Assembly: GCA_965223265.1 (NCBI GenBank)
Contig: OZ244999.1
Span: 8,544,001 to 8,608,000, forward strand
Direction: 5' to 3'
Source of the DNA: Planctomycetota bacterium
Lineage (GTDB): Bacteria > Planctomycetota > UBA8108 > SXIK01
Length of the DNA stretch: 64,000 nucleotides
This document shows, in pieces, positions 3 through 57,193 of the stretch (positions are counted from its first letter, which is position 1; each line of letters opens with the position of its first letter). Made by a program: the position numbers and the translations under genes. Under the pieces are notes generated by a model. It did no database searches, was not told where the DNA came from, and saw nothing but the letters and a program-made list of their open reading frames with translations.

Positions 3-3000
3 CTCGTTCACCATGATCCTTTTTTCGAGGAGCCAGAACGCGGGCGCATCCGCTATCACGCGCCGCTCGATGGTTCGCTCGGGATTTTGCAGGCCGAGCC
101 GCGGCAGCGATATACGCTCACGCTCTTCGATCTGGACGGGGCGATCGTGCGCGACACGCGCGTCGAAGCCGTCGTTCACGATCGCGTCCAGAGCAGCCGC
201 ACCGATGAGCAGGGACGAGTGACCCTTGGCGTCGCGGTGCCGACTTCTCTCACGCAACCAACCGTCGCATCGCTGACGACGCTCAGCCCAGACTATTTTC
301 AGCGAACTGTGACGTTTCCGGCGCCGCGTGAGCCTGCCGTTGCAACGCTCGGTGCACGCACCGCGCCGCGCCTACGATTTCGTGCCCTGCGGGTTGTCGA
401 CGATGTCGAACGCCCAGTGGAACCGATCACCCCGTCTTCGGTGCAGCTGGCGCACGAAATGACTCTTGTCCGCCTGGACGGTGACGGCGGCGTTCACTAC
501 GTCGGCGAGCTGCCCCCAGCAGGGATCGCTTTGGAGATCTTCATCAGTGGTTTCTTGCCACGTTATGTCACCACGCCGCCACTTCCGATCGGCGCTGCGG
601 AGCTCGATCTTGGCGACATCGTTTTCGATCCTGGTTGGACGCGGGAAGTGGATCTTCGAGGCTTGCGGCTCGAAACGGACGATTGCCGTGGCTGCTCCGT
701 CTTGGTCAGCAGCGAGGGCGATCCGCACCTGGTGCATCGCTACGTCGCCGATCGAGCAGAGCGAGTTCTTCTCGGTGGCCTTTCACGCGGTTTCTACACC
801 GTCACGATCGAAGGACCTGATCTGGCAACCCGAACGACCCGCTTCGAGATGCTCGAATCGCTGCAGGCGGCGCCGCTTTCCTTCGACGGAGCATGGGTAC
901 ATCACTCTCGCGTCCGCAGCGCCGGAGCGGTTCACTCTGTCGCGGAGTCGGAGTTTGCGGGCGCGGAAGTCATCGAGCTGTATCAAGTCGCGGGGACGGA
1001 GGGTGAGGTGAAGTCGGTGTCTTATCCGCTCGCTCCCGATGGATCTTTCGGGACGACTTTGGAAATGGAGAACATGGACCTGCTGCGCGTTGGTGTCGTC
1101 ACACCGCAAGGCCGGGTCGCTCTCGGGGTTGGAGGTGAACCAATCGCCGTCGGCAAAGATCGCTGGCTCTATGAATTCGGGCTGTTGAACTTCCTCAAGC
1201 GACCCTCTGCGCGGATCGATTTCATCGCTCCAGGGCTTGGGCGCGTGGAGCCGCCGCATCGCGTGAGCGTCCACGACGCTGCAGGCTTCTCCCAGCTGGC
1301 GCGATTTCGTGTGTACGAACGTAGCTTGTGGATCGATTCTCTGCTGCCGGGAGCCTATGACCTGCGCTGGCAAGTTGGTGACGGCGCGGAAGCAACCGTC
1401 GGCCTGGTGATCCGCAGCAACGAAGAGTTGCGTGTGCGCGTGGAGCGCTCGGTGCTTCCCGAAGAAACGATCGAGATTCTGGTCGTCGATCGTGACCGTC
1501 GGCCGATCGAAAGTGCTGCGGTGTCGCCGAGCGGGAGGTCCTTCGGTGTCGATCGTGATGCCTTGCCACCGGGAATCCACCTAACGAGAATCCGCACGCG
1601 TGAGACCACCACGCTGAGGGTCGAGGCGCCGGGGTTTGTTCACGCCACGGCGACGATCGAAGCGGGAGGGGTCGCGCCCAGCGAGGTCATTCTCTACGGC
1701 GCCGCACGCGCGAAGGGCCTCGTTCTCGACGCGGACGGACTCCCCGCAGTCGGTGAGCTGTGGATTGACTGGCGGCCTCTGAAGCCAAGTCGGATCTCTT
1801 ACGGCGATCGCATAGCCGTCGAGCTCACGGACGGGCGATTCGTCGTCGATGAATTACCAGCCCTGCCGCTGGAGTTCACGTTTCGTCTCGCTGATTCGAG
1901 CATCCAAGTTCAGCGTACGGCCAGCCTCGTTGCGGACGACGAAATCCATGACTTCGGCACCCTGCCGCTGATCGAAACTCGATCCCTCTCAGGGACCGTG
2001 TTCTTGCCGGACGGCTCGCGCGCCGCTGGTGCTGACGTGCTGCTTGTCGACGAGCGTTTCCTTCGCGTGCCTCTTAGGTCGCTCGCGGAGCGGGACGTGC
2101 GGTTTCGAGCCACGACCGATTCGCAGGGCGCGTTCGAGCTCCGAGAGATTCCTCTGGCGTTGGACGCGGATCTCCTTCTCGTGGCGCGACTGGATGGTTA
2201 CGGAGATGCATTCGCTGCTCGTCCAGACCTCGGTGAGAGCAGCTACGAGTTACAGCTCTCGCCGGCAGCTGGCCTGGAGCTCGCCGTTGGCTACTTGGAT
2301 GCCGCCGCGCGTCCGGAGTTTAGATTCGCGCTCGAGTTTCAGCCAGATCCTGAGGACGTCACGACTCGGACTGAGCTCGGTGAGATCCCAGCTGAGCTCT
2401 ACGGAGCGAATGTCTACGAGAATATCGAACCGGGCCTCTATCGTGTCACGTGGGGACCGCGGGACGCCTACGAACCTATCGCGCCGTTGACGGAGGAAGT
2501 GGTCGTCGTACCAGGAGAGATTCGTAGTCTCCACTTGACGCTCGAAGGCAGGGAACTGCGCGGCACGGCGTCGCTCAATGGTCAAGCCGTCGAGCGCGGT
2601 TGGATTCTACTCACTGACGAACCGGGCGCGAGCAGTTCGCGCGTCGGTCGCATCGTCGACAGCCGATTTCTGGTTGTCGACCCTCCCCTTGGTTTTCAGG
2701 TCTACGGGGCGATTGTTCCAGAAGGCAAGCCTCAGGCGCAGCAAAACATTGCCCGCGGCGAAGCGTTGCCGCTGCGTGTACCGCTTTACGATCAGGCGCG
2801 GCGCAACGGCTTTCTGCGCTTCGACTACGTCGCCTACGATCTCAGACTCAAATTCTCAGAGGAGTTCCTTCACCGCTACCCAGGTGCACAGCTCGTCTAC
2901 GACCAATATCGCTGGGACGGCAGCAGGTTCGTGAGTTACAAGGCGAGCGAACTGGTCGCCGCTTCATTCGTCGATTTCCGACTTCTCCGACCTGCAGTCT

Positions 3001-3092
3001 ATCGGCTGTCGCTGCGCACGGCGTCCGGTGGTCTGATCGTGGCGCGCCCGATCGCGATCATCGATCATGACACCGAAATCGAGTTGCGCTGA
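3..3092 (+). CDS. Large hypothetical protein with carboxypeptidase-regulatory-like (beta-sandwich) domains; 5' truncated by the window edge
   Basis: Frame is open from base 3 (LVHHDPFFEE...). Repeated motifs of the type G.V...DG.PA.GA.V, TDSQGAFEL and PG.Y.V.W are typical of CarboxypepD_reg-like repeats. Confidence 0.6.
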   Translation, partial: LVHHDPFFEEPERGRIRYHAPLDGSLGILQAEPRQRYTLTLFDLDGAIVRDTRVEAVVHDRVQSSRTDEQGRVTLGVAVPTSLTQPTVASLTTLSPDYFQRTVTFPAPREPAVATLGARTAPRLRFRALRVVDDVERPVEPITPSSVQLAHEMTLVRLDGDGGVHYVGELPPAGIALEIFISGFLPRYVTTPPLPIGAAELDLGDIVFDPGWTREVDLRGLRLETDDCRGCSVLVSSEGDPHLVHRYVADRAERVLLGGLSRGFYTVTIEGPDLATRTTRFEMLESLQAAPLSFDGAWVHHSRVRSAGAVHSVAESEFAGAEVIELYQVAGTEGEVKSVSYPLAPDGSFGTTLEMENMDLLRVGVVTPQGRVALGVGGEPIAVGKDRWLYEFGLLNFLKRPSARIDFIAPGLGRVEPPHRVSVHDAAGFSQLARFRVYERSLWIDSLLPGAYDLRWQVGDGAEATVGLVIRSNEELRVRVERSVLPEETIEILVVDRDRRPIESAAVSPSGRSFGVDRDALPPGIHLTRIRTRETTTLRVEAPGFVHATATIEAGGVAPSEVILYGAARAKGLVLDADGLPAVGELWIDWRPLKPSRISYGDRIAVELTDGRFVVDELPALPLEFTFRLADSSIQVQRTASLVADDEIHDFGTLPLIETRSLSGTVFLPDGSRAAGADVLLVDERFLRVPLRSLAERDVRFRATTDSQGAFELREIPLALDADLLLVARLDGYGDAFAARPDLGESSYELQLSPAAGLELAVGYLDAAARPEFRFALEFQPDPEDVTTRTELGEIPAELYGANVYENIEPGLYRVTWGPRDAYEPIAPLTEEVVVVPGEIRSLHLTLEGRELRGTASLNGQAVERGWILLTDEPGASSSRVGRIVDSRFLVVDPPLGFQVYGAIVPEGKPQAQQNIARGEALPLRVPLYDQARRNGFLRFDYVAYDLRLKFSEEFLHRYPGAQLVYDQYRWDGSRFVSYKASELVAASFVDFRLLRPAVYRLSLRTASGGLIVARPIAIIDHDTEIELR

Positions 3093-3140: not shown

Positions 3141-5972
3141 TCAAAACCCAATCAGCAGCCCTGTCATGATGCCGCGTCCTGCACCGGCGCCGCTTCCCGT
3201 CTTGAGCAGCGGGATGTCGCCGCGAACGAACGCTTCGATTTGATCCGTCAGATGAAGTGAAGCGCCCGGGCGAAGGACGAGGTCAAAGCTGGCTTGGTCG
3301 ACGTCGACGGGGGTACGCCCGGACGATCGACGATCTTTGGCTTTCAGGAGACCGCGCGCGCCGAGGAACAGGGAAACGTGACCGTGGCGCTCGGAGTAGG
3401 TGAGGGCGCTTTCCCACAGGTCGCCGGGGCGGCGCCCTTGGTGGCGATCGATCGCTGTCGTGTAGAGGGTTTCGAGGGTCAGCGCTCTATAGGTGTTCCA
3501 CGTCAACTCAAGCGCACCGCCCGCTGTTGGTCGCCACACACCGCTGCCACGCGCGAATGCGAATGGGGCAGCGCTGGCAGCGTTAGCAGTTGGGGCGGTC
3601 GTTGCCAGTCGAGGGATGAGCCGGAGCGCATCGCCCTCCGTTTCCGACGCAGCGAGCAGAAACGGTCGCTGCACGCCGAACTCAAGGTCGCGGACCCCCT
3701 CATCCGAGCCGCGTACTCCTGCGACTTTCCAGTCAGCGCGCCGGTAACCACCCGCGGCGTCGAGTTCGATCTCCCACGGCCCCCGCACGGCGGCGCGCAG
3801 CGTCACATCGCGCAGTCGGCCGCGGGCGCCGTCGCCGCCTCCCAGTCGATCGCGGTACCAAAAGGAAGACTCGAAGCGGACGCGATCTGGCACCGTATCG
3901 AGAATCTGTTGACCGAATCGCCGACTCTGAGGGCCGGTTGGACTTCCGTAAGGCGTCGGTTCAAGGCCGGCGTAACGCGGCGCCGCGCGCTCGCTTCTGT
4001 CGTACGGCCTGGCCATCGTGACGGCGGCCGGCGCGGTCGCCTCGCCCGACCAAAAGTGCTCGAGCATGTCGAGTCCCTGCTCGACTGTTTTGGCGCCGTG
4101 CGCCGGACCGTTGAGGGCGACGAAGCTTGTCGGGTCCAGTTTGCTACGCGCGTGGTTGGCTTGAGTGACCGCGTAGCCGCTGTAGGCGTTCGCGTGTGTG
4201 ACGACGAATGTGCTGGCCGCCGGGCTGCGCTGCTTGAGATCGAGACCCAAACGAACAGCGATTTCGGACGACGTAGCCACGATCGCGGTGTCGCCGATGC
4301 GCAGGGTTTGCAGCGGTGCGTACTTTGGCCAGTCGATCAAAGATCCAACGAGCCAGTCCAGCGGAAAGAGCAGGTCTGGAATCAAGTTGGGGTTGAAAGG
4401 GGGCAACGCGAAGTAGGTCGTCATTGCGCCGAGTTCAACGTCGCTGCGTGTCGCGATCGAGTCGATGTGGCCACGAACCGCTGTGAAGAGCTCAGCCGCT
4501 ACTTCTTCGGCGAGGCCTTCGGATGCCCATTGACCTGGACGGCGTGGCGACACCGCGTTGAGATCTCCGAGGGCACCGGCGAGGAAGAGACCGAAGCCGA
4601 ACGTGTCGTCGAGCTTCGAGGCGAGGTGTCCAGGGTAGTCGGGCGAAACGAATCCGTCGGCGGGCGAGAGAATCGGGTGGGCGGCGAAGTTGACGACGAC
4701 GGCGATGGGATCTCCTGCCGCGTCGACGACTTTCAGAATTCCAACTTCGGGATCGACGGTGGTGCCGTGGCGTCGATTCGCGCTGAGCCCGCCGGCAGCT
4801 GCGCTGCCGGCGCCGATAGCGGCCGGCTCGAGAGCATTGACTGCGTCGACTACCGCGTCGGCAATGCGCGTAACGAGTTGACTTCGGAGTTCCTCTTGGA
4901 ACGGACCGAACATGTAGAATTCGTAGAGTCCGTGATCCACGAAGCCGCCGACGCTCGTGTGCGTGTGGGTGGCGGCCACGAGCAAGTCGTCGAGCTCGAC
5001 GCCACGCTCGCCCAGACGGACCGCGACGAGGCGACGAAGTTCAGCGTCGGTGATGAGCAGATCGGCGCTGACGACTGCAACGCGCAGATCGTCCACTTCG
5101 AGGGCGATGGCGCGGGCGAACACCGGGGTTCGGACACCGGCGGCGACGCCTGGGCTCGGGCCGTAGGTCGCTAGCTGGACTGGACCGGTCCATCCATCGA
5201 GAAGATTTCGCTTTCCAACCCCTGCCCGCAGTGAGCCACGACGGGTGCGGGTGCTCCCCGAGACGAGTGGATACATGGTGAAAACGCGCTCTTCAAGTTC
5301 GCGGATGCGCTCTTCGTCGTCGAGGAGGCCGGGGTTGTCGATGAACGGTCGATAGAGCTCGACCGGAAACAGGTCGATGAATTGAAAGACGTTCGGATAG
5401 ACCGGCGGGATATGAAAGTGGTACGACGTTTCCCGTTTGAGTCGTTCGCGGTCCTTCACCCCCTGAAAGAGCATGCGCCACGCGGCTGACATCATGCCGG
5501 TACGGTCGGCGCCGGCGCGGCAGTGCATGAGGAAGGGACGGCGGGACTCCTGGGCGCGCAGCGTGACGCGAATCATCTCGAGGATTTTGCGCGGCGTCGG
5601 TGGCCTCGCGGCCGACATGCGAACGTGTGTGTAAGTGCCACTACGTGCCTCGATGAACGCCTTTTCATCGGGGTCGGGCTTGCGTTGTAGATCGAGGATT
5701 TCGCCGAGATTGACTCGTTCGCTGAGAAACTCGAGAAGCGCGCGGCTTGGCTCGTGGGAGCGATAGGCGATTCCTGGGGCAAGCTCGCCGAGGTTGTCGA
5801 AAAGAAAGCGCGTCTTCTCGCCGGCGCTCAGGGGTTCAACGTCGCTCGGTACTTCGAGCGGTGGCAAAGGTTCCGGAACTTCGACGAGCAAGCTGCAGCT
5901 GCTCGTGAGGCTCATGAGGCCCGCGACCCAGGCGGCGGCGACCTGCAGGCGTGCACATCGGGATCGACACAT
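3141..5972 (-). CDS. Putative lipoprotein: CX5R (dual-specificity/PTP-like) phosphatase + neutral/alkaline ceramidase-like domain + C-terminal outer-membrane beta-barrel
   Basis: HCRAGADRTG P-loop; ceramidase-like ATHTHT, NFAAHP and GALGDLN; amphipathic strands ending in ...GLLIGF. Start moved to ATG 5972, which precedes a signal-like stretch ending LTSSC. Confidence 0.75.
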   Translation of the reverse strand: MCRSRCARLQVAAAWVAGLMSLTSSCSLLVEVPEPLPPLEVPSDVEPLSAGEKTRFLFDNLGELAPGIAYRSHEPSRALLEFLSERVNLGEILDLQRKPDPDEKAFIEARSGTYTHVRMSAARPPTPRKILEMIRVTLRAQESRRPFLMHCRAGADRTGMMSAAWRMLFQGVKDRERLKRETSYHFHIPPVYPNVFQFIDLFPVELYRPFIDNPGLLDDEERIRELEERVFTMYPLVSGSTRTRRGSLRAGVGKRNLLDGWTGPVQLATYGPSPGVAAGVRTPVFARAIALEVDDLRVAVVSADLLITDAELRRLVAVRLGERGVELDDLLVAATHTHTSVGGFVDHGLYEFYMFGPFQEELRSQLVTRIADAVVDAVNALEPAAIGAGSAAAGGLSANRRHGTTVDPEVGILKVVDAAGDPIAVVVNFAAHPILSPADGFVSPDYPGHLASKLDDTFGFGLFLAGALGDLNAVSPRRPGQWASEGLAEEVAAELFTAVRGHIDSIATRSDVELGAMTTYFALPPFNPNLIPDLLFPLDWLVGSLIDWPKYAPLQTLRIGDTAIVATSSEIAVRLGLDLKQRSPAASTFVVTHANAYSGYAVTQANHARSKLDPTSFVALNGPAHGAKTVEQGLDMLEHFWSGEATAPAAVTMARPYDRSERAAPRYAGLEPTPYGSPTGPQSRRFGQQILDTVPDRVRFESSFWYRDRLGGGDGARGRLRDVTLRAAVRGPWEIELDAAGGYRRADWKVAGVRGSDEGVRDLEFGVQRPFLLAASETEGDALRLIPRLATTAPTANAASAAPFAFARGSGVWRPTAGGALELTWNTYRALTLETLYTTAIDRHQGRRPGDLWESALTYSERHGHVSLFLGARGLLKAKDRRSSGRTPVDVDQASFDLVLRPGASLHLTDQIEAFVRGDIPLLKTGSGAGAGRGIMTGLLIGF

Positions 5973-6409
5973 ATTCAGGCGACTCTCTTCCGCTTCTTCC
6001 GATCTTCTCTGGTTCTCTTCTGATCTGCGCTGATCTTTTCTGCCGCTGTCTGCGGCTTCTGACGACGGCAGCGCGCGGCACATGGGCGCTGAATTATAGT
6101 GTGCGACGGTCGAGAACTCGAACGAGATCCGAGCCTCAGTCGCGCGCTGTTTCCCTCTGAGTGAGGAGAGCCGTAGGCTGTTCGCCGAGGACTGCACGCG
6201 TGTGGATTCAAGCGAGCCGTGTCGTAGAGGTTCGACCCACCCCAGAGAAAGCGACAGGGGCTGTTCGCGCGGTCCTATTGAGGCGCTATCTCGTGACCGT
6301 CGATGAGGCCGGACTCGCCCGTTGCGCTGGCTCCGATGAACCGTCATCCTCAGTGTGCTCGTCGTCGACAAGCATCAATGTCCCATCAACCGAAGGAGTG
6401 ACGCACGTC

Positions 6410-7468
6410 GTGAGCGATCACCTGCCGGAGCCTTTTCAGTGGCTGCGGGAAGCACCTTTCTTTCAGGCCGGACTGGCGGGCTATTCCGACGCCGCGATGC
6501 GCATCGTAGCGCGGCGACATGGTTGCCCCTACTGTGTCACCGAGTCGATCCAAGATGACGTGCTGGTGCACGGGGGCAAGGGGCTCGAGGCAGCGCGGCT
6601 TGATCCGGAGGATCACCCGATCGCCGGCCAACTCATGGGCACGTTTCCAGACTCGATCGCAGCGGGCGCCCGGATTCTCGTCGAGCTCGGTTACGATGTG
6701 ATCGACGTCAACCTGGCGTGTCCGACGAAGCGCGTCCGGGCTCGATGCCGTGGCGGCCTCTTGCTGTCGGCGCCAGACGAAGCCATTGAGATTCTTACGG
6801 CGGTGCGCGATTCCGTGGCGGGGCGGAGGCCACTGACGGTCAAGCTGCGTCGTGGCTACGACGACTCGACTGAGTCGGCGCAGAACTTTTACCGGATCGT
6901 CGAGGCCGCGATCGACCTTGGCTACTTTGCCGCGACGGTCCATGGCCGGACGGTGACGCAAAAATACGTCGGTCCGTCGTCGTGGAACTTTCTCGCCAGT
7001 CTGACCCGTCGATATCCGAGTTTCCGCTTCTTCGGTTCCGGTGACGTCTTCGACGCTGCTGCTATTTTCAATATGCTCGAGACGACGAACGTGCGCGCCG
7101 TCGCCGTGGCCCGAGGTGCGATCGCCAACCCGTGGATTTTTCGCCAGGCGCATGCAGTCCTGCATGGTGGCACCGCTGCGCCGCCGACCCGCGCCGAGCA
7201 GCGAGGAGTCCTCGAGCAGCACTTTCAATTGGCCTCTCGATTCACCCCGGAGCGAGCTGTCCGTATGATGCGCAAGTTCGGGATTAAGTTCAGCCGCCAC
7301 CACCCGAACGCGGCCGACGTTGCGCGGGCTTTTATTGCCGTGAAGTCGTCCGCCGACTGGTGGGGCGCTCTTGAGGCGCATTACCCGCAGGGCAGGGTCA
7401 TCGACGCTGCTGTGACGTCTGGCGTCGACGGTCGTGCTTCGGTTGACCGTCGGAACGCGACTTGTTGA
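6410..7468 (+). CDS. dusB: tRNA-dihydrouridine synthase
   Basis: AGLAGYSD, DVNLACP, TVKLRRG, VHGRT, SGDV and ARGAIANPWIF motifs; AAGGAG upstream of GTG 6410. Confidence 0.88.
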   Translation: MSDHLPEPFQWLREAPFFQAGLAGYSDAAMRIVARRHGCPYCVTESIQDDVLVHGGKGLEAARLDPEDHPIAGQLMGTFPDSIAAGARILVELGYDVIDVNLACPTKRVRARCRGGLLLSAPDEAIEILTAVRDSVAGRRPLTVKLRRGYDDSTESAQNFYRIVEAAIDLGYFAATVHGRTVTQKYVGPSSWNFLASLTRRYPSFRFFGSGDVFDAAAIFNMLETTNVRAVAVARGAIANPWIFRQAHAVLHGGTAAPPTRAEQRGVLEQHFQLASRFTPERAVRMMRKFGIKFSRHHPNAADVARAFIAVKSSADWWGALEAHYPQGRVIDAAVTSGVDGRASVDRRNATC

Positions 7469-8423
7469 TCTGCCGGAGACGCCTAGCAATCCATCTGCGT
7501 TCAGACTTGAAGCCCTCTTTTGCCGCGAGATCTTTCGCCAAAGCCTCGTAGCGCTCGGTGATGTCGAAACCGACGCTGTGCTGCATCTTGCGAAGGCACA
7601 CCGGACAGAGAAACAGCGGTCGTGCGTCCGACTCTCTGAGATGGTTAGAGCCGTTCATGAGACAGTTGTAGTAGACGCAGTGACGCACCCCGAACATGTG
7701 ACCGATCTCGTGGGTCATCGTCTTGAGGCTGCGACGTTCGATCAGGTGGCGTGCCTGCGAGGTATTCGATGGCCGGCGCGGTGTATAGCGTGCAAAGCTG
7801 TAAATGCCGACACGTCGTGAGAGCGATGCTTGGCCAAACACGAAGTTCCAGTCGTCGCGCGGGTAGAGATCCTCGAGCGTGAAGCCAAGCAGACAGAACG
7901 CGTCGGGCGGTAGGCGGATTCTGAGGTAACTCAGAATATCCTTTGTCCAGATCTGACGACCAGCGTACTCATGCGCGCGCGTCTTGAAACCGAGGCCATC
8001 AATCGGCGTCGTTTTAAGAAGCGTGCATTCGAGTTGAAAGAAGGCGCTCACGTAGGCGCGGAGGGACTCGAAGTCGGGACTCTTGTCCGCGGAGAAGCTG
8101 CCGAGTGGCAGCAGGTAGATGCGGCGTCGCGTTGAGTTTGGAACGTGGCGTCGCGCGGCGAGAAAGCGGGGGAAGGATTGCGGTTCTTCTTCACGCACGT
8201 CGAGCCAATCGCCGCGACGCGGCTGCCCGAGCGGAGAGAAGTGGTTCGCGGGAAGAAAGGCGCGGCGCTCGCGTGGGGTGAGATCCTCGAGCGAGCCCAC
8301 GGCTGCGCGACGCTTTGCAGTGCTGATGAACGGAGCCTCAGCAGGGTCTTCGGCGGCGTTCGCGGGAAGCGTGAGCAGAGAGAACGCGACAACGGCAGTG
8401 CTGCAGGGGTTGAAGTCGGCCAC
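7398..8423 (-). CDS. Archaemetzincin-family zinc metalloprotease (secreted)
   Basis: HEIGHMFGVRHC..CLMNGSN...LCPVC; DLYP..WNFVFGQA; N-terminal signal peptide. Confidence 0.88.
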   Translation of the reverse strand: MADFNPCSTAVVAFSLLTLPANAAEDPAEAPFISTAKRRAAVGSLEDLTPRERRAFLPANHFSPLGQPRRGDWLDVREEEPQSFPRFLAARRHVPNSTRRRIYLLPLGSFSADKSPDFESLRAYVSAFFQLECTLLKTTPIDGLGFKTRAHEYAGRQIWTKDILSYLRIRLPPDAFCLLGFTLEDLYPRDDWNFVFGQASLSRRVGIYSFARYTPRRPSNTSQARHLIERRSLKTMTHEIGHMFGVRHCVYYNCLMNGSNHLRESDARPLFLCPVCLRKMQHSVGFDITERYEALAKDLAAKEGFKSERRWIARRLRQINKSRSDGQPKHDRRRQTSQQRR

Positions 8424-8650: not shown

Positions 8651-8932
8651 CAGACCGGCTGCGAATCGCGTGCGCAAGCCGGCGACTGATGCAGACACCC
8701 CATCAGGATCACGGAAGAGCGTTCTCGCCGGCGTTGTTCCCTAACGTCCCCTCGCCCGTCGCGAACTTTCACCGACGCTGCGCCGTGTCCAACTCTGCAA
8801 TCGCGAGTTCACCCTGGTCGGATGTGTTGGTTATAATGGTCCGAAGCTGACGCTCCGGCGCGGGTTGGTCGCTCCGTTGGTTTGGTCCAGGGCGTTTTCG
8901 AGGATGACTTTGTAGAAAGGGTTGCAACTTTG

Positions 8933-11821
8933 ATGGCGAATGCTGATCTGAGCGCGCGTCTGAAGTTGGTCGTGGCTCTGGGTGCCTTTGCCGTGGGCTT
9001 CTCCGTTGCCAGTTTTTCTCCTGTCGCGGCGGCGGACCCGGCCGCACTCGAACGCGCTGGCACCACGATTCTCGCTCAGCGCTGCATCAAGTGTCACAAC
9101 AGCGAGAAACTTTCCTCTGGACTTGACCTGACGCAGCGCGTGTCCGCTCTGCGCGGCGGTGACAGCGGTGCCGCCCTCGTTCCCGGCGCGGCGCAGGAGA
9201 GTCTCCTTTTCGAGAAGGTTCGCGACGGCGAGATGCCGCCGAAAGAACCACTCCCGGCACGGGAGCGCCAAGCGCTGCGCGACTGGATCGCCGCTGGTGC
9301 GCCGTGGAGCGAGATCCTGAAGCCCGCGGTGCAGCCCCGCGCGGAGGCCGACTGGTGGTCGCTCCAGCCGCTGCAAGACCCAGCGCCGCCGTCAATGGAG
9401 GGGGTCCCGGAAGCGTGGACGCGCTCGCCGATCGATCGCTTCGTCTTTGCGCATTTGCGAGAGAAGGGACTTGAACCGTCACCACCGGCCGATCGGCGCA
9501 CGCTCATCCGACGCGCGACATACGACCTCACTGGGTTGCCGCCGACTCCGGAGGCCGTCGCCGCGTTCGTCGCCGATTCGAGCCCGGAGGCGTACTCCCG
9601 TTTGCTGGACCGTCTTTTGAGTTCGCCGCACTATGGCGAGCGTTGGGGGCGGCACTGGCTGGATGTTGTGCGGTTCGGCGAGAGTCATGGTTACGAGCAA
9701 AACCATTTGCGGGCGAACGCGTGGCCGTTTCGTGATTACGTCATTCGTTCGTTCAATGCCGACAAGCCCTTCGATCAGCTTGTGTTGGAACATTTGGCCG
9801 GTGACCAAGTGGGAGCCGGCGACCCCGACGTGGAAGTCGGCACTGGATTCCTCGTCGCCGGCACCTACGACACCGTGGACATCGATAACATCGAGGGCAT
9901 GTTGCAGCAGCGAGCCAACAATCTCGACGACATGTTGTCGACCACGATCGCAACGTTCATGGGATTGACCGCGAACTGCGCGCGTTGTCACGACCATAAG
10001 TTCGACCCCATCCTGCAGCGCGACTATTACCGCTTGCAGGCAGTGTTTGCTGGCGTCGTGCACGGCGAACGTGAAGTGGCGACGCCGGAGAAGAAGGCGC
10101 AGCGCGACGCCGCCGCGGCGGAGATCTCTGCGGCGCTGGAGGATGTGACCGGAAAGATCGAAGCGCTTGAAACTGAAGCATTGAAGCGTGCCGAAGGCCG
10201 CCGTGACGAGCTCCTGAGCGACTTGCGACCGCCGGTGTCGTCGCGCGGCACCGAGGAACGATTCGACCCAGTCAGAGCGCGCTTCGTGCGCATGGAAGTT
10301 CATAAGACGGACAGAAGCTCTGCGACCATCGATGAATTTGAAGTGTGGAGCAGCGGCGACTCACCGCAGAACGTCGCGCTCTTGAGCGCCGGCGCTCAGG
10401 CGAGCGCGCGGGCGACTCGTAGCTCCGATGGTGACACCAGCTTTTACTCGCCGACGTTCGCCATCGATGGTGAATTCGGCCAGGCTTGGATTTCCGGAGA
10501 ACGACCGCAGGCGCAGCTGACGGTCGCGCTCGGTAGCGAGCACGTCATTAACCGGGTGTACTGGTCGCGCGATCGCCTGGGCGGTTTTACGGGTGTGTTT
10601 CAGGGCGGCGTGCCCGTGAAGTACGCGATCGAGGTGTCGCTCAACGGTGAGACATGGGAGCGTGTCGCCGACTCGTACGATCGGGTTCCACCGCGCGAGA
10701 ACCTCGTCCGCGAAGTCCTTCTCGATAGAGTTCTCTCGGACGACGAACGCTTGCAGCTTGCAGATCTTAGAGCCCGTAGGGAAGAGGTAGAGAAGGCTCG
10801 CGCTGCGCTGCCGAAGATCCCACGAGCCTATGTCGGCAGGTTTCAACAACCCACCGAGCCGGTCCATGTCTTGATTCGCGGCAACCCGATGACAAAGGGT
10901 GACGTTGTTCGGCCTGGAAGCATGAGCACGCTCGCGAGTGTGGCGCCTGCGTTCGAGCTCGACGGTGAGGCACCCGAGGGCGAACGACGCCTGGCGCTCG
11001 CCCGTTGGATCAGCCAGGACGCCAACCCTCTGACGCCGCGCGTTCTGGCCAACCGTGTTTGGCACTACCACTTCGGCCGAGGGCTCGTCGCGACTCCCAG
11101 CGACTTTGGCTTCAACGGTGCACCGCCTACGCATCCAAAGTTACTGGACTGGCTTGCCCGCCGCCTTCACGTTCTCGGCTGGCGACTGAAACCGCTTCAC
11201 AAAGAGATCATGCTCTCGATGACCTATCGACAGGCGAGCGATGTACGCACCGACGCTGCCCAAGTCGATCGAGACGCGCTCTTTCTGTGGCGCTTTCCAG
11301 CGCGGCGGTTGGCTGCTGAGGAGGTGCGCGACTCGATGCTTGCTGTCGCCGGCACACTGGATCGCTCCATGGGCGGCCCAGGGTTTCGACTTTACCGATA
11401 CACCGTCGACAACGTGGCTACGTACCTTCCTCTGACAACCGTGGACGAATCGACGTTTCGGCGATCGGTGTATCACCAACATGCCCGCTCGGTGAAGGTG
11501 GACTTGCTCGGCGAATACGATTGCCCTGACTCCGCGCTGGCTGCACCGCGCCGAGAAGTGACGACCTCACCCCTGCAAGCGCTCACTCTTCTCAACGGCG
11601 ACTTTGTTCTGCGGCAAGCGCAGGCGTTTGCCGAGCGTGTGGAGCGAGAGGTCGGAGGCTCTGAGCCGGTGCAGCAGGTGGAGCGAGCTTTCGTCTTGGC
11701 GTTCGGTCGGCCACCCATGGCGGACGAATTGGAACGCTCGGTAGAGTTCGTCAAAGCTCACGGCCTGTTCGTTTTCTGTCGCGCACTCCTGAATGCCAAC
11801 GAGTTTGTCTATGTCATGTGA
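8933..11821 (+). CDS. Planctomycete cytochrome c + DUF1549 + discoidin-like + DUF1553 (PSD1) protein
   Basis: CIKCH and CARCHDHKFDP; YGERWGRHWLDVVR; NPLTPRVLANRVWHYHFGRGLV; ends LLNANEFVYV. Confidence 0.92.
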   Translation: MANADLSARLKLVVALGAFAVGFSVASFSPVAAADPAALERAGTTILAQRCIKCHNSEKLSSGLDLTQRVSALRGGDSGAALVPGAAQESLLFEKVRDGEMPPKEPLPARERQALRDWIAAGAPWSEILKPAVQPRAEADWWSLQPLQDPAPPSMEGVPEAWTRSPIDRFVFAHLREKGLEPSPPADRRTLIRRATYDLTGLPPTPEAVAAFVADSSPEAYSRLLDRLLSSPHYGERWGRHWLDVVRFGESHGYEQNHLRANAWPFRDYVIRSFNADKPFDQLVLEHLAGDQVGAGDPDVEVGTGFLVAGTYDTVDIDNIEGMLQQRANNLDDMLSTTIATFMGLTANCARCHDHKFDPILQRDYYRLQAVFAGVVHGEREVATPEKKAQRDAAAAEISAALEDVTGKIEALETEALKRAEGRRDELLSDLRPPVSSRGTEERFDPVRARFVRMEVHKTDRSSATIDEFEVWSSGDSPQNVALLSAGAQASARATRSSDGDTSFYSPTFAIDGEFGQAWISGERPQAQLTVALGSEHVINRVYWSRDRLGGFTGVFQGGVPVKYAIEVSLNGETWERVADSYDRVPPRENLVREVLLDRVLSDDERLQLADLRARREEVEKARAALPKIPRAYVGRFQQPTEPVHVLIRGNPMTKGDVVRPGSMSTLASVAPAFELDGEAPEGERRLALARWISQDANPLTPRVLANRVWHYHFGRGLVATPSDFGFNGAPPTHPKLLDWLARRLHVLGWRLKPLHKEIMLSMTYRQASDVRTDAAQVDRDALFLWRFPARRLAAEEVRDSMLAVAGTLDRSMGGPGFRLYRYTVDNVATYLPLTTVDESTFRRSVYHQHARSVKVDLLGEYDCPDSALAAPRREVTTSPLQALTLLNGDFVLRQAQAFAERVEREVGGSEPVQQVERAFVLAFGRPPMADELERSVEFVKAHGLFVFCRALLNANEFVYVM

Positions 11822-13220
11822 TTCTTTGATTCCCCGACGTCACTTTTTTTCCTCGATGAGCGATGGACTGGTGGGCGCTGCACTTCTTTCGCTGCTCGGC
11901 GGGAGCCGTGCCACCGCGGAATCGCCACGATCGCAGGCCAAGGCGAAGCGCGTGATTCAGATTTTCTGCCCCGGCGGTGTGTCGCACGTCGACACGTGGG
12001 AGTACAAGCCAGAGCTGACGGCCTACCACGGCAAGCCTCTACCGAACGAAGGTAACTTTGTTTCGTTCATGGGGCGAAACGGAAATCTCATGCAGAGTCC
12101 GTGGGAGTTTCGTCGCTGCGGGGAGAGCGGCAAGCTGGTCTCGGAACTCTTTCCGCATCTTGGCGAGCTCGTCGACGACATCGCCTTCATTCACTCGATG
12201 ACGTCGAAGACAAACACGCATGGCCCCGCGTGTGTGTTCATGAACACGGGATTCGTGGCGGAGGGGTTCCCGAGCGCGGGTTCCTGGACCAGCTACGCTC
12301 TTGGGTCTGAAAACGATGACCTTCCCACATATATCGCGATGCCCGATGTGCGCGGGATTCCGCCGTCGGGACCGGCGAACTGGAACGCGGGTTTCCTCCC
12401 CGCGGAGCACCAGGCGATTGTCATGACGGCTGCGGAGCCGATTCGAAACATCGCGCGTCCGGCTGCCGTCTCACCGCAGTCGGATGCCTCTTCTCGTGAG
12501 TTCATCACTTTTCTCAACCGAGCGCACATGCGTCGTCACGCAGGCCGCTCCGAACTGGAAGCCCGGGTCGCCGCTTACGAGCTCGCCGCGCGGATGCAGC
12601 TCTCTGCACCAGAAGCGAGCGATCTCAGCCAAGAGTCTCGGATTACCCACCAGCTCTACGGCACCGACGACCCGAATCCGCTGGCCGCCACATACGCCCG
12701 GAACTGTTTGCTGGCGCGGCGTTTCCTTGAGCGCGGCGTCCGTTACATCACGCTCTACTGTGGCTCGCGCGCTTCTGGCGTTGACGGGCTACTGAATTGG
12801 GACGCCCACAAGACGCTAGAGAAGGACTACGAGCGGCATGCGCCGATTCTGGATCGAGCCTCTGCGGCGCTCATCAAAGATCTCCGTGTGCGCGGTCTTC
12901 TCGACGAAACCTTGGTGCTTTGGACGACGGAGTTCGGACGCATGCCGACGCATCAGGAGGGCACGCTTGGGCGCGACCACAATCCAGATGGCTTCACTGT
13001 CTGGATGGCCGGCGCTGGCGTCAAGGGTGGGGTGAGCTATGGTGCCACGGACCCGCTCGGGAGAAAGGCAGCGGTTGACGTTGCGTCGGTCTACGACTTT
13101 TACGCCACGGTTCTGCATCTCCTTGGTCTCGATCACACCAAGGCGACGTACTACCACAACGGGATCGAGCGACGTTTGACCGACGTTCACGGACACGTGA
13201 TCGACGCGGTCCTTGCCTGA
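11811..13220 (+). CDS. DUF1501 domain protein
   Basis: Tat-like RRHFF leader; GGVSHVDTWEYKP; EFGRMP; GRDHN; RRLTDVHG. Confidence 0.92.
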   Translation: MSCDSLIPRRHFFSSMSDGLVGAALLSLLGGSRATAESPRSQAKAKRVIQIFCPGGVSHVDTWEYKPELTAYHGKPLPNEGNFVSFMGRNGNLMQSPWEFRRCGESGKLVSELFPHLGELVDDIAFIHSMTSKTNTHGPACVFMNTGFVAEGFPSAGSWTSYALGSENDDLPTYIAMPDVRGIPPSGPANWNAGFLPAEHQAIVMTAAEPIRNIARPAAVSPQSDASSREFITFLNRAHMRRHAGRSELEARVAAYELAARMQLSAPEASDLSQESRITHQLYGTDDPNPLAATYARNCLLARRFLERGVRYITLYCGSRASGVDGLLNWDAHKTLEKDYERHAPILDRASAALIKDLRVRGLLDETLVLWTTEFGRMPTHQEGTLGRDHNPDGFTVWMAGAGVKGGVSYGATDPLGRKAAVDVASVYDFYATVLHLLGLDHTKATYYHNGIERRLTDVHGHVIDAVLA

Positions 13221-22660: not shown

Positions 22661-25600
22661 CTAGTTTGCGGCGTCTGCGGCTGGCAGCAGCGCGGGGCAG
22701 AACGAGAGAGCGCAGCCAAGAGGTGCTGGTCTTGTGCCACAGAAGGGGTATGGAGCGGGAGGAGGTGGTCCTTTGTCGAAGAGGAACTGGAGGGTGTAAA
22801 TCGGGTCGGCGATATCAACGGCTTCGCTACCGTTGGAGTCGGTTGCCTCCACGCAAGTTGGATCCTCGACGTTACCGACGAAGAGCCAGTTGAGGGTGTA
22901 GATCGGATCGCTGACGTCGACGATGGTGTCGACGTTCGCGTCGCCACGAATGAACCCGGGCTCCAATGCGATGCGGAAGATGACCGAGCCGCCCATCGTC
23001 TCGGGTCGTACGCCGAAACCGCCGACGACGTAAAGAACGTCGATGGCAGGATCACCGAGCGTGTCGCAATAGGTCACTGGATACCGTACTCCCGGAATCG
23101 CGTCCGGACCCTGGGCGTACTGAACGTTCAGGAGGCGGTGAGCCGAGCCGACAGGCAAAGTGTCTGTGCCGTCGAGAGTGTCGACGACCGCCGCCATCGT
23201 CACACCACGCTCGCTGATGCGAATCTCAAGGAACGTCGGTCCGGAGCCACCATTGAGCAGCGCGGTGTCCGTGCCGTCGATGTTGGCGTCTTCTGGGATC
23301 AGAACGGAAGAGTCGGAGCAAACGCCGAACGACCAACCTTGAAGCGGCCGGGAATTGCTCGCCATACAGATGACACGACCGGAGCCTGTGATGGCCACCA
23401 CGTCGGAGTTTTCATCGACGATCGCGGTGTCCGCATTGGGTATCGGGTCAAAGAGTAGGCTTGAGAAGAAGAGCACGTCGGGCGGAGGCGGCCCGTCGAT
23501 GACGACGCGACACTCTTCGATGCGACTTCGTCGTCCCCCATGGACGCCGGCGACACCGTACTCGTAGACGCCAGGCTCGAGACCGCCGTCTTTGAACAGG
23601 TTCGAGTCTCCGCCCAGCGTCGCGATCAAGTCACCGAATCGGAAGATGAGGATCGAATCGTAGTCGATCGGGTTCTCCCAGCGCAGGACTGCTGTCGGTC
23701 CGGCCGCATCCGTGATCACAGCGAAACACCGCAGTGATTCGACAGGGGGCACGGGGTTTGGTGGCACGTCGACGTCACAGCAGGTTCGCGGACTCGTACT
23801 CAGGATACCGACACCGAATACACAGTACGTGTGGCCGCCGCGATCGGGGCCGATGTCGCGGTAGACCATGGCGTCGCCCGGAAGCGTCGCGATCGGAATT
23901 CCGTCGCGCTCAACGACGATGCCGCGATAGAGGAATGGGTTCTCCCAGGTCAACTTCACAACCGGAATCGAGGGAATGTCAGTGCCTTCTGGCGCCGCCG
24001 GGAGTATCTCGTTGACCTCACAGCGCAGGTTTTTCGGCGGTGGCAAGAACGGCGGCGGCACCTCTACGATGCACGTCGCAGGTTCGCTCTCGCGATTCAG
24101 GACGACGCCGAAAACCGAGTAGAGCACCTTGCCCGAACCTGCAGGGGGAAAGTCGATATGACTGGTCGTGTCGCCCGGCAGGGTCGCGAGTAGCATCTTG
24201 TTTCGCGTGATGATGATCTTGTCGTAACGGACGGGGTTCCACCAGCTGAGATGCACTGCCAGGGACGCGAAAACGTCGACGACAACGTCGCCGATCGCCA
24301 CGGCGTCACCGTCCGCACTGATTGCTCCGAAGTCAGCGAGATCAACGGGTTCGACAGGGTCAATTGGGACCGGACCCCCGATCACCGCGCAGCGAAGATC
24401 GCGCGGCGGTGGTACGACGCCGACGGGAACCTTCACGTCACAGATTGCCGCCTCACTTCGTCGTAATCCGACGACGCCGAAGACGCGGTATTCGTTGTGT
24501 CCCGCCGGTGGATTGAAATCGCTGTAGCTCGTGGCGTTGCCCGCAATCTTGGCGATCGGCGAGCCGTTTCGTACCACGACGATCCATTCGTAAGCTTGAC
24601 CGTTTTCCCAGTTCAGACGCACGAATCCATCGACGATGTCAGCGAGATCATCGGCTGCGGTCTTGCCGATGAACTCACAGCTGAGATTTGATGGTGGCAG
24701 GATCGGCGGACGCGGCAGTTGGACGATGCACTTTGCAGGTGCGCTGATCTGATCGCCGACGACTCCAGAGACGCTGTAGACGTGTTCTCCGGCCGGCACG
24801 TTTCGATCAACGAAGTAGAACTGGTCTCCTGGAATACGTGCGATCACGGCATCGTTACGTGCAATCACGACGTGGTCATACTCGACAGGCTTCTGCCAAA
24901 CGAGCAGCACGTCGTGCGGACCCACGAGGCTTAGGTCATCGAGCGCCACGTCTGGGGCGTTGAGGTCGACGCACGTGAGCTCTTGCGGTGGGGGAACCTC
25001 TCCACCCGGAACGACGACCTTGCATTCACCGACCGGGAAGAGAAAGTCTGGGGGTAGCGACGCCAGTTCGTCGTCAGGCGCCTCGAGCACGATTCCTGAA
25101 ACCATGAATACCTGGTAGTGGTGTTCTCCAGGTCCAGGTCTGTCGACATAGCTGAGCTCAAGGGTTCTCGCAACGTTGACGCCATCGCGAACGACGAGAA
25201 AGAACGAGAACGCGATGCGCGGTAGAGGCACTCGAGACCAGTCGATCAGCACATTCGGTGCGTCCACCTTGCACACAAAGCCATCGCCAGCGACCACCAC
25301 CGTACATGCTCCGACGAGGAACTCACTGTCCTCAGAGACGACACCGTGGACCGTGTAGCGATGGGTGCCAGCTGGCACGTTCTCATCTGTATAGGAACCG
25401 AATTCTCCCTGCGGAACCCTCGCGATGGGAACGCCATCGCGACGTACGAGAAAGTGATCGAACGCGATGTCGATGAGGATGGGACCCCACTTGAGATCGA
25501 CGGTCGAACCGCTCACGGCACACTCGACACCGAAGTCACCCACGATGGCGCAGCAGCGTCCGATGCTGAAGATGTTGCCGTCGAAGTTGATCGCTTGGAG

Positions 25601-25852
25601 TTCGTAGAAATGCTGGCCGTCGCTGACGCCGCTGTCGAGATAACTGTTGGCTTCCGGCGGCAGGTCGGCGATGGCAATGCCGTCGCGCGACACGACCCAA
25701 CCCAAAATCGGGGCGACGAAGACGATGTTCCAGCTCAGCGTGACGTCCTCGCCACGGACGCTACATTTGAGACTCTCGCTGTCTGAGCCGAACGCCGCGC
25801 CAGGCGAGTTCCAGACGATGAGTCCGGCGAGTAGCAGCGTTGTTGTTCGCAT
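22661..25852 (-). CDS. Large secreted protein: 8 Cys-bracketed FN3/Ig-like repeats + cohesin-like domain + planctomycete-type dockerin
   Basis: Signal peptide after an AAGGAGG RBS; repeats of C...V.L.W....YD.I...R.G..IA.LPG; LQGWSFGV; RGDAN.D..VDVSDP...DSN...VDIADP...PPPAPYP.CG. Confidence 0.8.
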   Translation of the reverse strand: MRTTTLLLAGLIVWNSPGAAFGSDSESLKCSVRGEDVTLSWNIVFVAPILGWVVSRDGIAIADLPPEANSYLDSGVSDGQHFYELQAINFDGNIFSIGRCCAIVGDFGVECAVSGSTVDLKWGPILIDIAFDHFLVRRDGVPIARVPQGEFGSYTDENVPAGTHRYTVHGVVSEDSEFLVGACTVVVAGDGFVCKVDAPNVLIDWSRVPLPRIAFSFFLVVRDGVNVARTLELSYVDRPGPGEHHYQVFMVSGIVLEAPDDELASLPPDFLFPVGECKVVVPGGEVPPPQELTCVDLNAPDVALDDLSLVGPHDVLLVWQKPVEYDHVVIARNDAVIARIPGDQFYFVDRNVPAGEHVYSVSGVVGDQISAPAKCIVQLPRPPILPPSNLSCEFIGKTAADDLADIVDGFVRLNWENGQAYEWIVVVRNGSPIAKIAGNATSYSDFNPPAGHNEYRVFGVVGLRRSEAAICDVKVPVGVVPPPRDLRCAVIGGPVPIDPVEPVDLADFGAISADGDAVAIGDVVVDVFASLAVHLSWWNPVRYDKIIITRNKMLLATLPGDTTSHIDFPPAGSGKVLYSVFGVVLNRESEPATCIVEVPPPFLPPPKNLRCEVNEILPAAPEGTDIPSIPVVKLTWENPFLYRGIVVERDGIPIATLPGDAMVYRDIGPDRGGHTYCVFGVGILSTSPRTCCDVDVPPNPVPPVESLRCFAVITDAAGPTAVLRWENPIDYDSILIFRFGDLIATLGGDSNLFKDGGLEPGVYEYGVAGVHGGRRSRIEECRVVIDGPPPPDVLFFSSLLFDPIPNADTAIVDENSDVVAITGSGRVICMASNSRPLQGWSFGVCSDSSVLIPEDANIDGTDTALLNGGSGPTFLEIRISERGVTMAAVVDTLDGTDTLPVGSAHRLLNVQYAQGPDAIPGVRYPVTYCDTLGDPAIDVLYVVGGFGVRPETMGGSVIFRIALEPGFIRGDANVDTIVDVSDPIYTLNWLFVGNVEDPTCVEATDSNGSEAVDIADPIYTLQFLFDKGPPPPAPYPFCGTRPAPLGCALSFCPALLPAADAAN

Positions 25853-29621: not shown

Positions 29622-30047
29622 CTATAGATGCGCCACGAGTAGCGCCACGACCACCTGAATGGCGACGAACATTACGCCGACGGCGATGTCGTCCCGGCCG
29701 GGAAGCCAGCAGAAGTCGTAGAATCCCGTTCTCGAGGTTTCAAGTCGACTGCCGCACTGTGGACAGAGCGCGTTTCGACGCGCGCGAAGGGTTGCCGCCA
29801 CGCGGCTCGCGAGGATGGCGAGCGCCAGGCCGCCCACCACCGCGGCCATGGCTGCAGGCCAGGCGCCGCGCCAAGCGTCACCGAAGCGTCCACGAAATCG
29901 CGGCACTTGGAGAATCAACCCGACAGCTACAAGGAGCGTCCAGTACAGAATCGCACTGCTGTGCTGCTCGAGCCGTCGGTAGTCGCAACTGGCGCAGGAG
30001 AGTTCTTCTTGACTGCCGGAAAAAAGCATCGGGGGAGCCCCCACCAT
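29622..30047 (-). CDS. Small membrane protein with two CxxC motifs
   Basis: Non-overlapping 3' part of the 686-aa antisense ORF; CASC, 2 TM, CPQC, 1 TM. Confidence 0.5.
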   Translation of the reverse strand: MVGAPPMLFSGSQEELSCASCDYRRLEQHSSAILYWTLLVAVGLILQVPRFRGRFGDAWRGAWPAAMAAVVGGLALAILASRVAATLRARRNALCPQCGSRLETSRTGFYDFCWLPGRDDIAVGVMFVAIQVVVALLVAHL

Positions 30048-30158
30048 TGCTGAGCGTTCGCCAGACGTAGTTGCAACCGTCGAAGGCGACCGCCATGATA
30101 GGTGAAACCGTGCTCCCGCGACAGTGGGTAAAGAAGGACCTATGGGTAACACCGCAAG

Positions 30159-32186: not shown

Positions 32187-32280
32187 AGGATCGCTCGGTG
32201 CGGCCACATTCGCCTTGAAATCAGCGTCTCGGAAGCTTCTACTGAAGTCTTCGGTCGGTCAAGGCGCGGCGAGGTGCGTG

Positions 32281-34848: not shown

Positions 34849-34964
34849 AGTTTTAACGTCCTCGGCATGTCGAACGGCGTTGCCCGCCAGCCGATCGTTG
34901 TCGCCGACGCTCGACGACATGACCGCAGAGTTCGCTCTGCGTGAATCGCAGGAGACGAAGAGCC

Positions 34965-54330: not shown

Positions 54331-54340
54331 GGATCGATAG
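54173..54340 (+). CDS. Small helical accessory protein (55 aa)
   Basis: AGGAGGAGG RBS; overlaps the recombinase start. Confidence 0.6.
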   Translation: MVWTQLTLPFLPPEDQSVLAVLSAKEREEIARAVAILLQAIIENHGVEGENDEDR

Positions 54341-56417: not shown

Positions 56418-56569
56418 AGGTAAATCGACCGGGTTGTATCAAAGATTCGTCAGATTACGTCGGCTTACACCGAAAGGACTTACGACAGCGGAAGGTTGGA
56501 GGTGCATTGTGTGCTCGACTTCACACCCGCGAGCACCGCGTACGCTCGACAAGACCGCCGCCGTACGGT

Positions 56570-57018: not shown

Positions 57019-57193
57019 CCTCCCCCTCCCACGCCCACGCCCACTTCCCCTCCCACTCCCCCTCCCACACGGACTCCCCCTCCCACTCCCCCTCCCCCTC
57101 CCACGCCCACGCCCACGCCCACGCAAACGCCCACGCAAACGCCCACGCCCACGCAAACGCAAACGCAAACGCAAACGCAAACGCGAACGCAAC
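57019..57193. repeat. C-rich hexamer tract grading CCCCTC/CCACTC > CCACGC > AAACGC
   Basis: Directly visible; same units as at 22271-22436. Confidence 0.9.

Follow-up and report, generated by a model that had tools for sequence, protein, structure and literature searches.

What might a bacterium gain from joining a phosphatase, a ceramidase-like amidase and an outer-membrane barrel in a single polypeptide? The question is raised by a minus-strand gene at positions 3141–5972 of a 64,000-nucleotide stretch of planctomycete DNA (hereafter the window, whose positions give all coordinates below), and homology searches, structure prediction and genome comparison together outline an answer. Its product, a lipoprotein of 943 amino acids (aa), belongs by homology to a conserved but rare family, in which parts that are each of a known kind are united in a combination undescribed in the literature searched (most subscription journals lie outside it). 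We put at roughly 40% the probability that the protein is an outer-membrane, lipid-anchored two-enzyme machine for phospho-amide amphipathic lipids, such as ceramide-1-phosphate, sphingosine-1-phosphate or ceramide, for which we infer both the substrate and the membrane face that bears the enzymes. Channels of the COG4313 type, which the barrel resembles in fold, are widespread, with substrates and a transport mechanism that are largely unknown (Pput2725 included), and a natural fusion of barrel, amidase and phosphatase offers a direct, testable hypothesis for the cargo of such a barrel. The parts of the gene, all on the minus strand and with coordinates checked by re-translation, are as follows.

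3141–5972, minus: whole gene, 943-aa lipoprotein with phosphatase, ceramidase-like amidase and outer-membrane barrel; stop codon 3141–3143
5895–5972, minus: signal peptide with lipobox, Cys26 being the predicted lipidated N-terminus of the mature protein (from sequence)
5829–5894, minus: Pro/Glu-rich tether behind the lipid anchor (from the translation)
5268–5828, minus: Cys-based phosphatase of the protein tyrosine/dual-specificity phosphatase (PTP/DSP) fold, aa ~49–235 (Pfam, PDB profile search, Foldseek)
5496–5525, minus: P-loop HCRAGADRTG with Cys151 as nucleophile, Asp156 and Arg157 (verified coordinates)
4041–5267, minus: zinc amidase domain of neutral-ceramidase fold, aa ~236–644 (Pfam, PDB profile search, Foldseek)
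4965–4967, 4959–4961, 4677–4679, 4263–4265 and 4173–4175, minus: aligned metal-site residues H336, H338, H432, E570 and Y600, respectively (2zws alignment)
3948–4040, minus: disordered, poorly conserved linker, aa 645–675 (predicted local distance difference test score, pLDDT, <50)
3882–3947, minus: candidate lumen plug before strand 1, aa 676–697, non-helical, consensus DPTxPQSRR... (models, conservation)
3144–3881, minus: 12-stranded outer-membrane beta-barrel of COG4313/FapF type, aa 698–943, ending in Phe (model, Foldseek)
3585–3593, minus: P794-T-A, the 'PTG' motif of the family at the base of the long loop after strand 5 (alignment)

Reality and distribution of the fusion

Of the 24 proteins retrieved by a word-indexed search of 5.8 billion clusters, 19 (P0003–P0021; 900–981 aa) are 44–59% identical to the query over 94–100% of its length; the precomputed Pfam column assigns all 19 near-full-length homologues the ceramidase family together with one or more PTP families. 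Scanning one genome per species (185,579 species) yielded 75 loci, and the 15 that match essentially the entire protein (L001–L015), at 40–51% identity, come from records titled Planctomycetota or Planctomycetia metagenome-assembled genomes (MAGs) or 'uncultured bacterium'. The frame runs uninterrupted to a stop past the barrel in 13 of these 15 loci, the other two running off their contigs, and an exhaustive search of representatives added six further full-length members, every one with both enzyme families. Because homology at 44–59% identity spans the full length, the comparison places the whole feature far beyond chance, and the 19 full-length clusters, 13 uninterrupted loci and six further representatives argue that the three-part protein is a conserved family and, for practical purposes, exclude that separate genes were read through. 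That three genes were read through as one by an error of assembly or annotation has, in our estimate, a virtually negligible probability: certain relatives in the databases (P0039, P0043, P0023) are plainly artefacts or broken, but the same uninterrupted frame recurs in independent loci and divergent clusters, and the window itself is part of a 9.18-Mb contig.

On the genomes searched, the family is rare and confined to Planctomycetota, and the initial annotation, which did not recognise the architecture and called for a search across genomes, is borne out in that respect; none of the three outcomes that it named as refuting came up. Public records name its members 'neutral/alkaline non-lysosomal ceramidase N-terminal domain-containing protein' or hypothetical; the literature searched yielded no description of a fusion between a ceramidase and either a barrel or a phosphatase, and its full-text part no paper on ceramidases of Planctomycetota. 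A careful tree recovers the fused family as monophyletic (100/100) on a long branch apart from five planctomycete stand-alone ceramidase-like proteins.

The minus-strand frame is open from a TTG at 6371 to the stop codon. We rejected the longer open reading frame (ORF) from this TTG (1076 aa) as the gene, its upstream part overlapping a dihydrouridine-synthase (Dus) gene and the homologues beginning at the lipoprotein signal. The sequence indicates that the true start is the ATG at 5972, because the 943-aa product then opens with a signal peptide ending in a lipobox cysteine, C26, that is aligned in homologues, and because the DNA upstream of 5972 overlaps the Dus gene on the plus strand. The N-terminus has a basic n-region, then a hydrophobic core and, at position 26, a Cys that is aligned in 19 of the 19 homologues having an N-terminus (the remaining four of 23 rows are cut N-terminally), with S, N, R or G as the +2 residue. 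Although the window's lipobox, T-S-S-C, is slightly off the L-x-x-C usual in most homologues, we regard Cys26 as probably lipidated; a single ORF starting at 5972 with a lipoprotein-like N-terminus was also how this end of the gene had first been read. An AlphaFold2 model of the full-length protein has a mean pLDDT of 84.3 and a predicted template modelling score (pTM) of 0.82. In it the first part of the tether is non-regular and of low confidence, the 10-residue blocks over residues 1–30 scoring 34, 37 and 53 and the block from residue 31 scoring 89. The antisense ORF of 626 aa at 3294–5174 on the plus strand is a shadow frame of the GC-rich gene.

The barrel occurs essentially only within the fused family, as judged by searching a profile of 14 C-termini with HMMER against 1.84 billion representative proteins (E<=0.001). 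The 28 matches comprise 11 fused proteins of 773–984 aa, one truncated fused protein, 14 fragments of 46–377 aa and two weak repeat proteins, and the fragments we inspected (P0028, P0029, P0033, P0039, P0043, P0045) are pieces of fused genes, or broken or chimeric. The word-indexed search with the barrel profile returned four proteins, all fragments of the same family, so that neither search contains a stand-alone barrel of this type. Two fragments were considered as cases of another passenger and set aside: P0039 (377 aa) is an apparent assembly artefact of an acyl-transferase piece, a mid-ceramidase-like piece and an adapter-like tail, and P0043 is frameshifted. A third, the 232-aa fragment P0045, has a signal peptide and a domain of ~130 aa followed by the plug and the start of the barrel. 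The ~130-aa domain is common to proteins of 425–456 aa (P0051–P0063), several with PF04338 (DUF481), and the stretch with plug and barrel matches family member P0032 at 86% identity. P0045 looks chimeric, though it could instead represent a second passenger on the same barrel.

The two enzyme domains

Four Pfam families of the PTP type match the phosphatase domain just above their cut-offs: PTP-NADK at 31.3 bits, Tc-R-P at 31.6 and Y_phosphatase2 at 28.1 (cut-offs 27), and Y_phosphatase3 at 27.1 (cut-off 22.2), the last in a match limited to aa 125–165. Searching the PDB with the family profile retrieved 2m3v (2.4e-11), TpbA 4r0s (5.3e-11) and Siw14 (4.7e-10), and by Foldseek the phosphatase model reaches template modelling (TM) scores of 0.75–0.76 to TpbA and Siw14. 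The domain thus shares its fold and CX5R loop with TpbA (4r0s) and Siw14 (6byf), from which it differs by its fusion to an amidase and a barrel. The CX5R loop HCRAGADRTG lies one base from where it had been estimated (~5497–5526), and its C151, D156 and R157 are kept in 21 of the 21 homologues that have a phosphatase domain. In a short alignment with 2m3v (TpbA), Ala122 stands opposite an upstream TpbA Asp, which we take to be the general-acid (WPD-type) Asp, and the column is non-Asp in every homologue.

Lipid phosphatases of the MptpB type have, in the available excerpts of Beresford et al. (PMC3091653), the signature HCXXGKDR[TA]G, a catalytic Asp within the loop and no WPD loop, and a likeness to myotubularin is noted there. 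The window's P-loop has in common with this signature the in-loop Asp and the DRTG tail; as far as those excerpts go, the combination of an Asp before the Arg with no aligned general-acid Asp resembles the MptpB-type and myotubularin-type lipid phosphatases. We therefore consider the active site to be probably lipid-phosphatase-like, the domain itself not being a member of the MptpB family.

The amidase domain, which the initial annotation had placed at ~5230–4050 as neutral-ceramidase-like, was found at ~4041–5267 with that assignment intact. Ceramidase_alk (PF04734) matches in two stretches at 63.5 bits (cut-off 32.1, E 1.9e-17), the better one covering profile positions 12–205 of 509. Both the PDB search with the family profile and Foldseek lead to the ceramidase of Pseudomonas aeruginosa, 2zws (8.9e-26 and 9.2e-24), and human neutral ceramidase, 4wgk (1.5e-24 and 2.6e-22), which Foldseek ranks first, with TM scores normalised to the target of 0.50–0.53. 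In the alignment, H336, H338, H432, E570 and Y600 face H97, H99, H204, E411 and Y448 of 2zws, presumably the zinc ligands together with the catalytic His; each of the five is unchanged in 23 of 23 sequences. CerN/PaCD (2zws, 2zxc) and the human enzyme (4wgk) have the catalytic-domain fold and the Ceramidase_alk family in common with the target, which is unlike them in being lipid-anchored, fused to a phosphatase and provided with a barrel in place of the C-terminal domain. CerN, in the portion of PMC3900636 available, is an extracellular enzyme. The nearest non-fused relatives are proteins of 430–493 aa from Planctomycetota, Bacteroidota and others, at 22–31% identity, some with twin-arginine-type N-termini.

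The barrel and its relatives

Among 17 full-length sequences (136 pairs; six partial rows excluded), mean pairwise identity falls from 0.52 (ceramidase domain) and 0.51 (phosphatase) through 0.46 (barrel) and 0.42 (plug segment) to 0.25 (linker); the linker also varies in length among homologues. The plug segment is coil with no helix predicted (block pLDDT 60–88 in the full model and 79–97 in the C-terminal model), and its Q682 and R684 are at least 90% conserved. Since COG4313 and FapF barrels hold an N-terminal segment in the lumen, aa 676–697 may by analogy plug the lumen of this barrel.

About 260 aa of amphipathic strands ending in Phe had been noted at the C-terminus, and these ~246 aa, with their alternating hydrophobicity, do model as a barrel. 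In the full-length model, 12 long strands follow the linker and the ordered non-helical stretch and run to the C-terminal Phe; modelled alone (269 aa, 41 sequences), the C-terminal domain again has 12 strands, at a pLDDT of 95.0 and a pTM of 0.89. An aromatic residue closes the chain in 20 of 22 aligned homologues and 10 of 13 complete loci. Long connections (20, 13, 17 and 7 residues) follow strands 5, 7, 9 and 11, and short ones follow strands 1 and 3 and every even strand, a modelled pattern that largely fits long outer loops with both barrel ends periplasmic. A homotrimer prediction (the arrangement of FapF) scored 0.00 against a mark of 0.42, which is evidence neither way.

Foldseek against the PDB ranks FapF 5o65 first (E ~6e-10, TM 0.71–0.73) and then Pput2725 4rl8_C (TM 0.73/0.73), with NanC (0.54/0.69), EspP (0.47–0.58), Hbp (0.54) and NalP (0.51–0.52) lower down. 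A protein-language-model feature search of the Atlas, for which the C-terminal region of homologue P0013 stood in for the window's own, found PF13557 (Phenol_MetA_deg) on 21 of the 30 nearest clusters (score 0.96, 163–169 shared features), which we treat as a lead only; with PF13557 set aside, other small outer-membrane barrel families follow at 0.93–0.94, with no autotransporter family among them. Among 35 candidate ORFs taken from the window and the loci, a local hidden Markov model (HMM) search gave no match. A Pro directly follows strand 5 in 22 of 22 homologues and the full PTG is present in 14 of 22, the window having PTA. Because the barrel is nearly as conserved as the enzymes and carries invariant charged residues, the comparison argues for a working channel or gate more than a passive anchor.

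In the excerpts of Van den Berg et al. (PMC4493636) at hand, COG4313 channels are 12-strand barrels with their N-terminal ~14 residues in the lumen; they resemble autotransporter barrels, bind detergent and have a conserved cluster including Pro119-Thr120-Gly121, proposed as a lateral gate. The cargo is there proposed to be hydrophobic or amphipathic, SphA being named as a sphingosine channel, and the substrate of Pput2725 is given as not known. The target has in common with COG4313 members (Pput2725 4rl8, SphA, TcpY) the 12-strand barrel of ~270 aa, an ordered non-helical segment ahead of strand 1 (in the target 22 aa long and conserved) and a PTG-type motif after strand 5. Whereas those members are stand-alone proteins of 270–320 aa (per the same excerpts) with a free N-terminus lodged in the lumen, the target has ~675 aa of lipoprotein enzymes before its barrel. 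As far as the accessible parts of Rouse et al. go (PMC5557850, PMC6173800), FapF has a PTG motif at the base of its beta5–beta6 loop, common with Pput2725, and a plug that folds back, keeping the N-terminal domain periplasmic. FapF (5o65, 5o67, 5o68) and the target share the 12-strand fold and the PTG-type motif; in contrast to the helical plug, trimerising coiled coil and fap operon of FapF, the target has no predicted helix, no coiled coil and no fap genes nearby, and its N-terminal domains are enzymes.

Proposed function, alternatives and genomic setting

The logic of the fusion is suggested by P. aeruginosa, where, in the portion of PMC3900636 available, SphR, a regulator that senses sphingosine, switches on sphA (for a COG4313 porin), cerN (for the neutral ceramidase) and sphBCD, with ceramide inducing only via cerN and sphingosine-1-phosphate only after phosphatase treatment; the initial annotation was right to recall that sphA and the ceramidase gene are co-regulated by sphingosine. 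By this logic, therefore, the fusion would join three activities that converge on sphingosine, mirroring the separately encoded SphA and CerN of that regulon. We envisage that the barrel sits in the outer membrane and that both enzyme domains hang on its periplasmic face, held by the N-terminal lipid and the barrel. This placement, which follows from the analogy with FapF and from the consideration that the lipidated N-terminus would in any other arrangement need to pass through the membrane, is the weakest step of the proposal. An exogenous lipid would enter through the barrel or through a lateral gate at the PTG motif, the phosphatase would strip its head-group phosphate, the amidase would cleave the N-acyl bond, and the cell would gain a sphingoid base, a fatty acid and phosphate. 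More tentatively still, the protein could be the first outer-membrane channel for hydrophobic substrates (COG4313/FapF type) that is covalently coupled to the enzymes processing its cargo, handing a phosphosphingolipid-like cargo from the lateral gate to a lipid-anchored phosphatase and ceramidase-like amidase. If true, this would add a new architecture to the short list of enzyme-carrying outer-membrane barrels and provide independent evidence for COG4313 channels such as SphA as conduits for sphingoid lipids; it would also mean that planctomycetes harvest or recycle sphingolipids. The fusion points to processing of sphingolipids or N-acyl lipids in Planctomycetota, and the protein is compact enough to express and assay.

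Several observations weigh against this proposal. Known neutral ceramidases have a C-terminal beta-sandwich domain; in the target, Pfam matches no such domain past ~aa 645 and the model consists of linker and barrel. Identity to known ceramidases is 15–17% in the Foldseek alignments, and the NCBIfam equivalog NF041649 scores 25.8 bits against a cut-off of 1200, so that the protein is not an orthologue of CerN or the human enzyme; because the domain is this far from true neutral ceramidases, the substrate may be another N-acyl lipid. The P-loop lacks the Lys of the MptpB signature (as given in the excerpts cited above), having Ala or Ser at that position. One lineage, represented by P0022 (773 aa), is without a phosphatase, its parts being a lipoprotein signal, a ceramidase-like domain and a barrel. 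P0022 is nested in a quick tree (Shimodaira–Hasegawa-like approximate likelihood ratio test, SH-aLRT, 86), and the careful tree has a backbone without resolution, so that its architecture may be a secondary loss or the ancestral form. The barrel itself is elusive to sequence methods: at E<=10, none of 14 C-termini matches any Pfam family, PF13557 included, and a PDB sequence search with the barrel profile has no match; nor does the whole protein match PF13557 or an autotransporter family at E<=1. Kinship to PF13557/COG4313 is thus at best remote, since the Pfam HMM finds none of the 14 C-termini even at that threshold. The earlier suggestion of likeness to the Phenol_MetA_deg/SphA family accordingly stands for the fold (4rl8, TM 0.73), the Atlas features and the PTG motif and fails at the level of the Pfam HMM, which missed Phenol_MetA_deg while the PTP-type families and Ceramidase_alk were detected above their cut-offs; the motifs on which the suggestion was based (EGVRDLEFG, APT...GSGVW, PGD) are present in the translation. 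Neither the window nor the nine syntenic loci have a lipid-metabolism gene as a conserved neighbour, and none of the 30 ORFs around six stand-alone ceramidase-like genes of planctomycetes encodes a channel or a phosphatase that would make up a split system.

The same parts could be put to other uses. In an autotransporter-like display, the alternative offered by the initial annotation, a type V translocator barrel would thread the phosphatase and ceramidase to the cell surface, where they would attack external lipids whose products diffuse in. The target does share with type Va autotransporters (EspP, NalP, Hbp, AaaA) the order of an N-terminal enzyme and a C-terminal 12-strand barrel. It is unlike them in fold (TM 0.47–0.58, against 0.71–0.73 for FapF and Pput2725), in having no alpha-helical pore segment predicted before strand 1 (aa 676–697), in matching no Pfam autotransporter family at the thresholds given above, and in its lipoprotein-type signal, whose lipid anchor would need to cross the outer membrane; the families next after PF13557 in the Atlas are other small outer-membrane barrels. 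We consider such a display rather unlikely. Much the same holds for the idea that the protein remodels or turns over lipids of the cell's own outer membrane, be they sphingolipids, lipid A or aminolipids, in envelope adaptation and not feeding, for which PagL and LpxR, barrel enzymes that modify lipid A, provide a precedent. An outer-membrane protein that pairs a phosphatase with an N-acyl amidase would suit this role, as would a stand-alone gene amid housekeeping neighbours, which is usual for envelope-maintenance genes, and some Planctomycetota may make sphingolipids, Spt-like proteins being reported from 138 Black Sea MAGs of the phylum in the available part of PMC11334938. We nonetheless hold this explanation to be unlikely, as no sphingolipid or lipid A gene lies nearby in the window or the related loci and a family with 15 loci among 185,579 species genomes is a poor fit to a core envelope function.

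Finally, the barrel might be a mere anchor, with the phosphatase acting as a TpbA-like periplasmic protein phosphatase in signalling and the ceramidase-like domain acting on an unrelated, non-lipid amide. The solved structures most closely related to the phosphatase domain include TpbA, and the ceramidase-like superfamily includes many uncharacterised bacterial proteins of 430–490 aa. Such an arrangement appears improbable to us, because an anchor would not need the barrel's near-enzyme level of conservation, its invariant charged residues or its PTG motif, and because the three parts occur together in all 19 near-full-length homologues and all six further representatives.

Genomic context neither helps nor contradicts the proposal of a two-enzyme machine for phospho-amide lipids. 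Among the 12 loci with flanks there is no conserved neighbourhood: of the window's ORF families, only that of the target recurs, apart from its antisense shadow ORF, which matched in 10 loci. Nine loci (L002, L004, L005, L008–L011, L013 and L015) are mutually syntenic, with Peptidase_S46 divergent upstream and chorismate-binding, pterin-binding and His_biosynth-family proteins, a 4-HFC-P synthase and a 1300-aa LTD/CotH protein as neighbours, and we read this synteny as relatedness, not function. The window contains no paralogue of the gene and no Rfam match. A promoter scan of it found none, and the two terminator-like sites, both within the gene, do not exceed the 2.8 expected from shuffles.

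Divergent from the gene on the plus strand lies the Dus gene at 6161–7468 (Pfam Dus 6.1e-44), which is 61% identical to a neighbour ORF in locus L006; its start as listed is probably too far upstream, the Pfam match beginning at aa 104, and the minus-strand ORF at 6386–7489 is a shadow. On the other side, an ORF of more than 1000 aa at 3–3092 (plus), open at the window start and with CarboxypepD_reg as its sole Pfam match, converges on the gene and ends 49 bases from its stop. A 341-aa ORF at 7398–8423 (minus) matches Peptidase_M54 (archaemetzincin-type) at 1.3e-14 and has a relative of 47% identity at the edge of L012. Farther away, ORFs of 1063 and 686 aa at 22661–25852 and 29622–31682 (both minus) have coding-like GC content at third codon positions (GC3) and no Pfam family at 1e-5, and a large serine recombinase (Resolvase, Recombinase, zinc-ribbon) at 54309–56417 (plus), flanked by ORFs without a Pfam match at 52057–53076 and 56480–57208, possibly marks an integrated element. 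Two pairs of planctomycete-specific PSCyt/PSD1 (DUF1549/DUF1553) and DUF1501 genes lie at 8882–13220 and 32278–36287 (both plus), the former with an additional cytochrome c domain and F5/8 type C domain, and with these pairs among its other genes the window is typical planctomycete DNA.

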